Virus record (IMG/VR): IMGVR_UViG_3300042534_000747
Strand: one strand, 5' to 3'
DNA from: a virus
DNA: 64,000 nucleotides
Shown here: positions 57,348 to 59,204 of the stretch, piece after piece
Layout of the letters: every line of letters starts with the position of its first letter
Numbering within the stretch: the stretch's first letter is position 1
Translations under genes and position numbers: made by a program
Notes under the pieces: generated by a model
Database searches by the model: none
Told to the model about the DNA's origin: nothing
What the model saw: only the letters and a program-made list of their open reading frames with translations

Positions 57348-59204
57348 CTACTTCTTCCCACCCTTTTTCTTGCCTAACTTTGTGTAACCTATATATCCAA
57401 TAGCAGTGAATGCTAAAATTGTCATGATATAAAGTAACCAATTTGTACTATCACTTGCAGAATCTATAAGTCCTGATATATATTCAGTTTCATATTCAAG
57501 GAAATAACTTGTTTGACCTTCAACTACATTGATTTCAGTAGTGACAGGTATGAATCCATCCTGTGCATATCCTTTAATTGCAACTGTGCCTATATTGACG
57601 TATCCAGTCCAATTTCCTGCCTGTGTATCATCATTTTCTAATACTGTGATTAACATATCAGGTAATTTATTATTGCCATTTACAGCAGTTATTGAAATGT
57701 ATTGTCTTTCTTCTTTTGGAATTGTTTTTGAATTTGTTAATATGAATGAATAATCTAATTCATTGTATAATCCAGTAGAACCTTCTACACAAACTGTAAC
57801 AGATTGAAGCAATTCATCTTCTATAATATCATTACCAACTAATGAAAATTCTACAACTTCAGTTTCACCAGATGCAATGAATATTTCCTGTTTAGTATCT
57901 CCAAATGATACTGATTCAGTTTCACCATGTTCTAACCATGCTACTACCTTTCCACTATTTCCATTATTTTTGATAGTTGCTTCTAATACTGTTGCACCAT
58001 CTGAATATAAATCAGTGACTAAATTAATGTCTATGATTTCAGGATTTGTAGTTGAAAATATTTCTTCTACATTACCGTAATCTGAAGGGATATACCATGT
58101 TCCTATAATAGACATATCAGTAACATATAAAAGTTCAGAATCACTTATCAAATTATAATTTTCAATATCATTAATTCCATCATATTCAAATGTTTTAAAT
58201 GTTGCAACTTCTGCATCTGTAGTTGGTATAAATCCATATTTTTTATAACTGTTTTGAGAGAATTTTTCATTGCATAATCTATCTAATGTTATTGTTTGTG
58301 GTAATAAGTCTACATCTTTAGAATTTGATGTTCCATCATTATTCCAATCAATTGTTTTTGCATATTGACTTAATGCATAATTGAATGCAACTATGTGATT
58401 ATTTGCATCAAGTGCATAATTTCCATAAACACCATCTCCATATTTCATTCCACCTAATACTTCATCTGGTGTGTAATCAGAAGTATCCATGAAGAATAAT
58501 CCATTAGAACGTTTGAATATTGATAGGTCTTTTAATGTAGGTGCAGTTGATGTACTACGTGTATTAAGTAATCCCTGCTCAACATAATAGATAGTAGGAC
58601 TAGTACCTTCAACTTTGTACAGAATTTGACTATTCTTTACATCAGTTGTTAAATATGTAGCAGTATATGTCTTTTCACCATCATCAGTTTTAATTGTTAC
58701 AGTAGGCTTGTAATCAGCTACATAATTCCAATTTGCAGAGTCTAATTTATAATAAGATGCTCCTACATTTGAGTATTCAGCATCTATACTTGAAAATATT
58801 CCACTTACTGCAACTTTTGAAACATATGGTATAGTTGTTTGTTTCACTACATTTGTAACATATCCTATTGAATTAGGTTGGAATTTTAATGCGTATTCAG
58901 TTTCTATTGAACCTTTTACATTTGTTCCATCAGATGTGACACCTGAATCAAAATCTTTTGAACCTGAACCTAAATCAAGAGTTTGTTCTGTTGTTTTTGA
59001 TATATAATTTGAAATTGGTATTTCAGATTCTACTACTGAAAGTTGGTAATAGGTCATTTCACCTTCACCTAAATTTATTGTAGCAATAACTTCATCGTTT
59101 GATAACATTGAAGCTGTTGAAATATCATTATTTGTATAAGAAATAAATCCAATACAAAATAATAAAATTAAAAATGCTGCAATTATATTATTTTTTTTAG
59201 TCAT
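57348..59204 (-). CDS. fsx1: Probable fusexin (Fsx1/HAP2-like class II membrane fusogen)
   Basis: 618-aa type I membrane protein with collinear matches to archaeal Fsx1 as recalled from memory (TYTATYLTTD~IQSATLSNGD, EQGLLNT..AP~WNGNLDLG..P, TWYI..TNPEII~TVYV..GDPDII, ATIKNNG~ATVENVG, SGETEVVEF~AGESVTYSF); one C-terminal TM plus basic tail. Confidence 0.65.
   Translation of the reverse strand: MTKKNNIIAAFLILLFCIGFISYTNNDISTASMLSNDEVIATINLGEGEMTYYQLSVVESEIPISNYISKTTEQTLDLGSGSKDFDSGVTSDGTNVKGSIETEYALKFQPNSIGYVTNVVKQTTIPYVSKVAVSGIFSSIDAEYSNVGASYYKLDSANWNYVADYKPTVTIKTDDGEKTYTATYLTTDVKNSQILYKVEGTSPTIYYVEQGLLNTRSTSTAPTLKDLSIFKRSNGLFFMDTSDYTPDEVLGGMKYGDGVYGNYALDANNHIVAFNYALSQYAKTIDWNNDGTSNSKDVDLLPQTITLDRLCNEKFSQNSYKKYGFIPTTDAEVATFKTFEYDGINDIENYNLISDSELLYVTDMSIIGTWYIPSDYGNVEEIFSTTNPEIIDINLVTDLYSDGATVLEATIKNNGNSGKVVAWLEHGETESVSFGDTKQEIFIASGETEVVEFSLVGNDIIEDELLQSVTVCVEGSTGLYNELDYSFILTNSKTIPKEERQYISITAVNGNNKLPDMLITVLENDDTQAGNWTGYVNIGTVAIKGYAQDGFIPVTTEINVVEGQTSYFLEYETEYISGLIDSASDSTNWLLYIMTILAFTAIGYIGYTKLGKKKGGKK

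Follow-up and report, generated by a model that had tools for sequence, protein, structure and literature searches.

A putative class II fusogen with a predicted fusexin fold encoded by large virus-like archaeal replicons

Introduction

Fusion of gametes (HAP2) and of somatic cells (EFF-1) is driven by class II fusogens, as is cell entry by many enveloped viruses; where these proteins originated is an open question. Here we ask whether a fusogen of this class is encoded by a gene at positions 57348-59204 (minus strand) of the IMG/VR virus record IMGVR_UViG_3300042534_000747, of which a stretch of 64,000 nucleotides, referred to below as the window, was analysed. A first-pass annotation had described the product as a probable fusexin of the HAP2/Fsx1 type in a large self-replicating methanogen element. 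The archaeal fusexin Fsx1 fuses cells and sits on integrated mobile elements of Haloarchaea, and it is also found in metagenomes from diverse environments (PMC9259645). According to a 2026 meeting report, an element carrying Fsx1 is a vesicle-borne double-stranded DNA virus of archaea that is transmitted by membrane fusion (PMC13712861). Overall, the predicted fold of the new protein, its membrane anchor, its predicted trimer and its genomic context support the earlier interpretation that it is a fusexin, while the assignment to methanogens was not supported and the claimed sequence match to Fsx1 did not hold.

Results

Predicted fold

A reading-frame check and translation gave a single open reading frame (ORF) of 618 amino acids over the whole interval, which is a real gene; the short plus-strand ORFs nested within it were without support. 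We named the product P0001 and describe it, from the ORF check and the predicted fold, as a fusexin-fold (class II fusogen-like) type I membrane protein. Its structure was predicted with AlphaFold2 from an alignment of eight sequences, namely P0001 and the seven full-length homologues (597-626 aa; 28-34% identity) among the nine relatives that HMMER retrieved when 1.84 billion cluster representatives were searched exhaustively. In the full-length model (predicted local distance difference test, pLDDT, 70; predicted template modelling score, pTM, 0.51), the ectodomain is predicted to have the three domains of a class II fusogen, i.e., a domain I, an elongated domain II formed by insertions within domain I, and an immunoglobulin (Ig)-like domain III. 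A Foldseek search of the PDB with this model placed Fsx1 (7p4l) first with an E-value of 6.8e-14, followed by HAP2 (about 1e-9), Semliki Forest virus E1 (8e-9), EFF-1, the Gc proteins of hantaviruses, nairoviruses and phleboviruses, and flavivirus E. Similar results were obtained with VIA-align (VIA), a structural comparison that is independent of Foldseek: 7p4l_A was matched with a Z-score of 15.1 (329 aligned residues, root-mean-square deviation (rmsd) 8.8, residues 40-492 of the model) and HAP2 with Z-scores of 13.1 (5mf1) and 12.7 (5ow3), while matches to Ig domains only ranked lower (Z at most 11.8) and were confined to residues 387-495. When the full-length model was searched against BFVD, bunyavirus Gc and alphavirus E1 were returned with E-values from 4e-10 to 1e-6.

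A separate model was made of the region N-terminal to domain III. The eight homologues were cut at the domain III boundary and residues 40-386 (58047-59087, minus strand), corresponding to the predicted class II domains I and II, were folded alone (pLDDT 68, pTM 0.67). Only nine of 48,161 PDB representatives reached a Z-score of at least 5 against this model in VIA, and all nine were class II fusogens aligned over the whole model: Fsx1 (7p4l; Z 9.0, 233 residues, rmsd 8.8), three HAP2 structures (5ow3, 8.6; 5mf1, 8.0; a third, 6.6), the Gc proteins of Rift Valley fever virus (6.9) and Schmallenberg virus (5.9), Atlas-virus Env (5.9), EFF-1 (5.8) and the Andes virus glycoprotein (5.1). The best 14 VIA matches and the best 50 Foldseek matches of the domain I-II model were exclusively class II fusogens. 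A Z-score of 9 is by itself little above the VIA background, and the class II assignment is convincing because the match list is exclusive and the full length is covered. The likeness to Fsx1 is thus not confined to the Ig-like domain III, as the model from which this domain had been cut still matches class II fusogens. Nor do the matches describe a surface protein of Ig/CARDB repeats: Ig-like matches occur at residues ~385-495 only, and the N-terminal 347 residues match class II fusogens. From these predictions we consider it very likely that P0001 has a class II fold, and both models agree with the first-pass annotation in pointing to a HAP2/Fsx1-type class II fold on a large self-replicating archaeal element.

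Domain III itself (residues 387-495; 57720-58046, minus strand) is predicted to be an Ig/CARDB-like beta-sandwich, based on VIA and profile matches. Its VIA matches include domain 3 of Plasmodium berghei HAP2 (7lr3_D) with a Z-score of 11.6, among many Ig-like domains with Z-scores of 9-12. It is followed by an additional membrane-proximal beta-sandwich (residues 496-575; 57480-57719, minus strand), here called domain IV, which comprises eight predicted strands with block-mean pLDDT values of 76-88 and carries the family invariants I503, A507, G530, W532, G534, G545, P553 and Y571. Domain IV had no Pfam match in searches with either P0001 or the family. At the stem and the start of the transmembrane (TM) segment, the pLDDT falls below 50 (residues 575-591).

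Predicted trimer and candidate fusion loop

Three copies of residues 49-381 were folded together with ESMFold2, a predictor other than AlphaFold2. The interaction prediction score from aligned errors (ipSAE) was 0.76 for the three-copy prediction compared to 0.00 for the best control, and over three runs the contacts agreed to at least 76% with pLDDT values of at least 69. In the calibration of ipSAE, 20 of 30 proteins whose solved structures are pairs of identical chains reached the mark, as did one of 23 that had been solved as single chains; these runs used two copies and their own alignments, and the counts apply only roughly to the three-copy run of P0001. Class II fusogens form homotrimers in their post-fusion hairpin, and the score supports a predicted trimerisation of domains I and II. 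The predicted interface consists of residues 115, 118, 153-163, 194, 209-225, 343-346 and 360-367 of P0001, with self-contacts at residues 220 and 223 that place the family motif E209...R-x-TSTAP222 on the predicted three-fold axis. Residues 209-225 (EQGLLNTRSTSTAPTLK; 58530-58580, minus strand) are the most conserved motif of the family, with E209 and P222 invariant. The conserved W159 is located in the predicted interface and not in a free loop.

The segment GIFSSI (residues 135-140; 58785-58802, minus strand) is flanked by the predicted strands 128-134 and 139-144, and nowhere else in the region is the pLDDT as low. Family members differ by as many as eight residues in the length of this loop, and all of them have clustered bulky side chains, hydrophobic or aromatic, at this position (IF, YVL, LLGGI, YIY, GWWI, FWDF, SWY and VFDLF). 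A variable, aromatic-rich loop is as expected of a membrane-insertion loop; judging from the model and the family alignment, GIFSSI is a plausible candidate for the fusion loop that class II fusogens carry at the tip of domain II.

Topology and family of homologues

Strong hydropathy was found only at the two ends of P0001, and DSSP applied to the model gave helices at residues 4-21 and 587-611 and, in between, some 40 beta-strands. Hydropathy, DSSP and translation bear out the hydrophobic N-terminus (putative signal peptide), the beta-rich ectodomain, the single C-terminal TM segment and the Lys-rich tail that had been described from the sequence. Residues 1-31 (59112-59204, minus strand) form a putative N-terminal signal peptide or anchor with a KK n-region, the hydrophobic helix at residues 4-21 and a motif, (T/G)AS(I/M)L(G/S), that is semi-conserved in the family alignment. 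At the other end, a stem (residues 576-586, low confidence) and the single TM helix (residues 587-611) occupy 57372-57479 (minus strand), with a hydropathy peak at residues 589-608. The short Lys-rich cytoplasmic tail follows (KKKGGKK, residues 612-618 and stop codon; 57348-57371, minus strand), the protein ending in KLGKKKGGKK. P0001 contains only three cysteines (residues 17, 311 and 472), none of which is conserved across the homologues; these have between zero and four each, again without a conserved one, and P0006 has none.

The architecture is common to all eight members, with about 30 invariant positions in the alignment, and each of the eight keeps the single C-terminal TM anchor after the stem together with the basic tail. 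The family is rare. A word-indexed search of 5.8 billion proteins returned the query alone, whether a single sequence or the alignment was used, and pattern scans found no further relative in GTDB species genomes or JGI metagenome contigs, nor did tblastn in GenBank phages and PLSDB plasmids. A pattern scan of IMG/VR identified one record with a relative (IMGVR_UViG_3300042535_000037), and three of the relatives stem from South China Sea Site-F cold-seep metagenomes. The exact P0001 sequence is also present in the ESM Atlas, where its single-sequence model is poor (pLDDT 0.43, pTM 0.27). The class II fold emerges only after a few homologues are aligned, and single-sequence structure surveys could therefore miss fusexin-like proteins of this type.

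Sequence-level comparison with known fusexins

At the level of sequence, we found no link to any fusexin. P0001 matched no Pfam family at E-values up to 10, the HAP2-GCS1 family PF10699 included, and the eight members had only weak Pfam matches at E-values up to 1, PF10699 not among them; no PHROGs family matched P0001. The NCBIfam model for Fsx1 (NF053506) matched none of the eight members at E-values up to 10 and gave no match in the complete 183-kb relative described below. Searches of all PDB chains, 7P4L included, with phmmer and the family profile returned no Fsx1 or HAP2 match at E-values up to 10; phmmer matched no PDB chain at all, and the family profile matched only designed Ig domains and an Ig-like domain of a glycosidase, at residues ~400-455. 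The structure-based alignments showed an identity of 10-13% only. Homology to fusexins rests on predicted structure because of this missing sequence-level link. The first-pass annotation had listed segments that were said to match Fsx1 collinearly across domains I-III. All of the segments quoted are present in P0001 and in the order given. However, since searches of the PDB, NF053506 and Pfam were all negative for fusexins, the claimed match is not a sequence similarity.

Operon and neighbouring genes

Within a compact operon, the fusexin-like gene occupies the second place. The probable operon promoter, as read directly from the DNA, is a TATA-like box (TTTATATA; 59715-59722, minus strand) located about 100 nt upstream of the first gene and preceded by T-rich runs that end the preceding gene. 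The first gene encodes an N-terminally anchored, beta-rich membrane protein of 139 aa (59197-59616, minus strand), and its 3' end shares 8 nt with the start of the fusexin-like gene. This protein forms a family of its own (28-33% identity), whose gene immediately precedes the fusexin-like gene at each of the six loci where it was found. The viral class II proteins have companions, namely prM, E2 and Gn, and by analogy the 139-aa protein may be a candidate companion or chaperone. The base that follows the fusexin stop is the first of the gene of a CPBP/Rce1-like intramembrane protease (56535-57347, minus strand; PF02517, E-value 4e-11), whose position after the fusexin-like gene is conserved in the related loci L001/L002, L007 and L008.

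Four more genes with overlapping or abutting ends follow the CPBP gene. The remainder of the operon (54157-56550, minus strand) encodes proteins of 184 aa, 221 aa (polytopic, with the HExxH motif HEMIH), 162 aa (secreted) and 89 and 87 aa (small membrane proteins), and for four of these five, homologues are found in the same order in L001/L002/L006/L007. Two putative intramembrane proteases are thus encoded within 55334-57347 (minus strand), the CPBP/Rce1-like protein and the 221-aa HEMIH protein, both conserved in relatives and possibly involved in processing or priming the membrane module. Upstream of the operon, three membrane protein genes (59805-63188, minus strand) encode a 408-aa pilin-type surface protein, a 191-aa protein and a 423-aa polytopic protein, and their order is the same among the homologues in L001 and L006. 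The 408-aa protein (59805-61031, minus strand) is acidic and has a weak archaeal type IV pilin N-terminus (PF07790, Pilin_N; E-value 0.003); a function in attachment or as a major surface protein is possible. BLASTP against the related elements showed the 423-aa, 191-aa, 408-aa and 139-aa proteins, the fusexin-like protein, CPBP, the 221-aa and 162-aa proteins, the small membrane proteins, a ribonucleotide reductase (RNR) paralogue and NrdJ to be collinear, and the operon order is kept in at least six loci.

In relatives, the module is adjoined by a HerA/FtsK-type ATPase (DUF87) together with three conserved unknown proteins (~260, ~390 and ~410 aa; L006:193-4794; L001:1-3908; L011). These could be packaging and structural (capsid?) genes. 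When ten neighbouring unknown proteins were compared with PHROGs, only a weak terminase-like P-loop match was obtained, on the HerA-type ATPase. In the 183-kb element, the HerA/FtsK-type ATPase is a ~750-aa form with a Hint/intein signal.

The element, its relatives and the host

The window has a GC content of 22-30% throughout and encodes PolB, two RFC-like AAA+ proteins, an ATP-dependent ligase, an XPD-like helicase, a Cas4-type nuclease, an ERCC4 nuclease, a DHH phosphoesterase and an intein-bearing class II RNR; no tRNA genes were found in it. Profile matches confirmed PolB, RFC and RNR from the replication and DNA-associated genes that the first-pass annotation had ascribed to the element. 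Its PCNA, primase and MC1 fared less well: the two ORFs at the place given for primase and PCNA, between the ERCC4 and AAA_24 genes (29059-30111 and 30126-31100), had no Pfam match, and the ORF called MC1 (6108-6536, minus strand) matched PF05854 below threshold (E-value 0.0028; 18.3 bits against a cut-off of 23) over nearly the whole profile. The latter ORF may code for a chromatin protein that has diverged; as evidence on the host it carries little weight at best.

The record IMGVR_UViG_3300042535_000037 is 183,084 bp long, has direct terminal repeats and a CheckV completeness of 100%, and carries one copy of the fusexin-like gene. It had no match to the Pfam models for HK97 capsid, Terminase_6N, portal and tyrosine integrase, which are insensitive for archaeal viruses; this relative is possibly a large virus-like replicon of archaea of an unusual, non-tailed kind. 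A scan of GTDB genomes for the PolB returned no close relative. The closest PolB proteins in the phage collection belong to haloarchaeal tailed viruses (27% identity), and the best named matches of the ligase to DPANN archaea (25-30% identity). The replisome genes together with the pilin-type N-terminus point to an archaeon as the host. A methanogen, as named in the first-pass annotation, is unsupported beyond the sub-threshold MC1 match and the cold-seep origin of three relatives; the cold-seep community comprises Asgardarchaeota, Thermoplasmatota, Thermoproteota, DPANN and anaerobic methanotrophic archaea (ANME).

Two further observations concern the window outside the operon. At 48860-53391 (minus strand), the intein-interrupted class II RNR (NrdJ) adjoins a 550-aa degenerate RNR-barrel paralogue; NrdJ is 57% identical to its counterpart in L006 and the paralogue 27% identical to that in L002. 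A free-standing GIY-YIG ORF of 87 aa (27028-27291, minus strand; E-value 2e-15) lies in the replisome operon, flanked by the genes of the Cas4-like nuclease and of the RFC small subunit, and is probably a homing-endonuclease remnant.

Discussion

We interpret P0001 as a functional class II-type fusogen of the element, a reading to which we assign a probability of roughly 0.6 and which leaves the route of fusion open. Taken by itself, the proposal that the protein is a true fusogen appears reasonably probable. Several points weigh against it. A sequence-level link to fusexins is absent from the Pfam, NF053506 and PDB phmmer/profile searches, and the fold evidence is a moderate-confidence model built from an eight-sequence alignment. 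The structural alignments have an rmsd of 7-9 Å, a high value that reflects the hinges between the domains. Prediction and conservation are both poor in the second insertion of domain II (residues ~241-345), domain III has a single cysteine (C472) and no disulfide, and the trimer score may echo the predictor's memory of solved class II trimers.

On a different reading, the class II likeness would be a modelling artefact and P0001 an ordinary archaeal surface protein of Ig/CARDB-like beta-sandwiches. The shallow alignment of eight sequences, the mean pLDDT of 68-70, the Ig-like region as the only sequence-level signal, the low pLDDT of the Atlas single-sequence model (0.43) and a shape search of the ESM Atlas, which gave CARDB-type proteins with template modelling scores below 0.3, would all fit such an explanation. 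However, two separately predicted models agree, ESMFold2 folded the same stretch at a pLDDT of 70-72 and placed the copies consistently, and the Ig-free domain I-II model matches class II fusogens only (best 14 in VIA, best 50 in Foldseek), which chance or generic beta-sandwiches would not produce, so that we regard an artefact as very improbable. A genuine class II fold could also have been put to another use, and P0001 would then be a membrane-anchored adhesin, a receptor-binding protein or a surface-lattice protein on a fusexin scaffold. The GIFSSI loop of P0001 is only modestly hydrophobic, the conserved disulfide is missing and extra Ig-like domains are typical of adhesins; on the other hand, every member has both a C-terminal TM anchor with a stem and an aromatic-rich variable loop, a trimer is predicted, and the carrier is a mobile element that needs entry into cells. 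We therefore consider a class II protein without fusion activity unlikely.

The remaining alternative keeps the class II fusogen and changes its task to cell-cell fusion, with a giant-plasmid-like element transferred from donor to recipient in a conjugation-like manner and without a virion or vesicle. Elements carrying Fsx1 were first read in this way (PMC9259645), the capsid, terminase and portal models had no match in the complete 183-kb relative, the replisome is full as in large plasmids or Borg-like elements, and a pilin-type surface protein and a HerA/FtsK-type ATPase are located in or beside the module. In contrast, IMG/VR lists the 183-kb relative as viral, with direct terminal repeats and 100% completeness by CheckV, the Fsx1 element is vesicle-borne according to the 2026 meeting report (PMC13712861), and conjugation genes were not found, although only few families were searched. 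Transfer by cell-cell fusion without any particle seems rather unlikely to us, and the statement that a particle or vesicle fuses with a cell, as opposed to a cell with a cell, falls somewhat short of an even chance and is put forward tentatively.

For the preferred reading of P0001 as a fusogen of the element, the following mechanism can be proposed. After export, the protein would be held by its C-terminal TM helix in the membrane bearing the element, be it a virion envelope, a vesicle or the membrane of a donor cell. A trigger would then expose the aromatic-rich loop of domain II, which would insert into the membrane of the target archaeon, and three copies of the protein would assemble about the conserved R-x-TSTAP segment. 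The stem and domains III and IV would fold back, drawing the TM anchor to the inserted loops until the two bilayers merge, and the merger would deliver the ~200-kb replicon into a new cell. More speculatively, the translationally coupled 139-aa membrane protein would serve as a companion in the manner of prM, E2 and Gn, and the adjacent CPBP protease would prime the system. One could go further and regard the replicons of ~180-200 kb and 26% GC as giant archaeal viruses of a new lineage, enveloped or transmitted in vesicles, that enter cells with a class II fusogen, its companion and an intramembrane protease, a possibility that we consider doubtful at present.

In the literature searched, a second archaeal fusexin family is not described and Fsx1 is the sole described prokaryotic branch; papers joining "fusexin" and "methanogen" were limited to a study on Haloferax cell bridges. 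P0001 probably founds, as judged from the predicted fold, a sequence family apart from both Fsx1 and HAP2 and thereby a second archaeal fusogen family. Such a family would be invisible to sequence searches and would have a different anchor, no disulfides and its own conserved partner genes, on very different carriers, i.e., virus-like replicons of ~200 kb with their own replisome, some of them from deep-sea cold seeps. It would broaden the known distribution of the class II fold in Archaea and strengthen the link of fusexins to virus-like elements, and the three-gene module of companion, fusogen and protease is compact and directly testable for fusion. Should the replicons indeed be a lineage of enveloped or vesicle-transmitted viruses, Archaea would have a complete virus-style module of companion, fusogen and priming protease that is unrelated in sequence to Fsx1, class II fusion machinery would be old and widespread in the archaeal virosphere, and the finding would bear on a viral origin of the cellular fusexins (HAP2).

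Comparison with known fusion proteins

Fsx1 (PDB 7P4L) is the best structural match of P0001 for both the full-length and the domain I-II model. Like Fsx1, P0001 is an archaeal, membrane-anchored protein of a mobile element with an extra domain after domain III, and a HerA-type ATPase near the fusexin-like gene, as in Fsx1 elements, is seen in a P0001 relative. Fsx1 has three TM segments, a four-helix hairpin that forms a six-helix bundle and a disulfide-bonded domain IV, and a disulfide between strands C and F of domain III has been called invariant (PMC9259645). P0001, in contrast, has one TM segment, and its family has no conserved cysteine in place of the several disulfides of Fsx1 and thus lacks the "invariant" one of domain III. 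Its domain II helices are short (4-7 residues) and lie in a low-confidence part of the model, and its domain IV is a predicted eight-stranded beta-sandwich of ~80 aa and not a disulfide-stabilised chitin-binding-like domain. The single TM segment, the near absence of cysteines and the different membrane-proximal domain had been noted as differences from Fsx1 in the first-pass annotation, and the model, the cysteine count and the hydropathy scan confirm them. The carriers differ as well: Fsx1 is found on an integrated element of more than 50 kb in Haloarchaea, P0001 on a replicon of ~200 kb and 26% GC with PolB, RFC, ligase and RNR. Unlike Fsx1, P0001 has conserved partner genes (the 139-aa protein and the CPBP protease), and sequence similarity between the two is undetectable with NF053506 and the phmmer and profile searches of the PDB.

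With HAP2/GCS1 (5MF1, 5OW3, 6E18, 7S0K), P0001 shares the predicted three-domain class II architecture and a single C-terminal TM segment. The Z-scores against HAP2 are 12.7-13.1 for the full-length model and 8.0-8.6 for domains I-II, and domain III matches 7lr3 with 11.6. The two differ in that P0001 does not match PF10699, has no disulfides, has the additional domain IV, and is prokaryotic and encoded by a mobile element.

The viral class II proteins (alphavirus E1, flavivirus E, bunyavirus Gc and Atlas-virus Env; 1RER, 6EGT, 7A4A) differ from P0001 in their setting, as P0001 is encoded by a large archaeal DNA element and is not part of a polyprotein, and the identity in the structural alignments is 5-12%. 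Their fold nevertheless matches that of the P0001 model, and the protease gene beside the P0001 gene can be counted as a further likeness. In addition, the P0001 gene follows that of a small membrane protein within one transcription unit, which recalls the order of companion and then fusogen in prM-E, p62-E1 and Gn-Gc.

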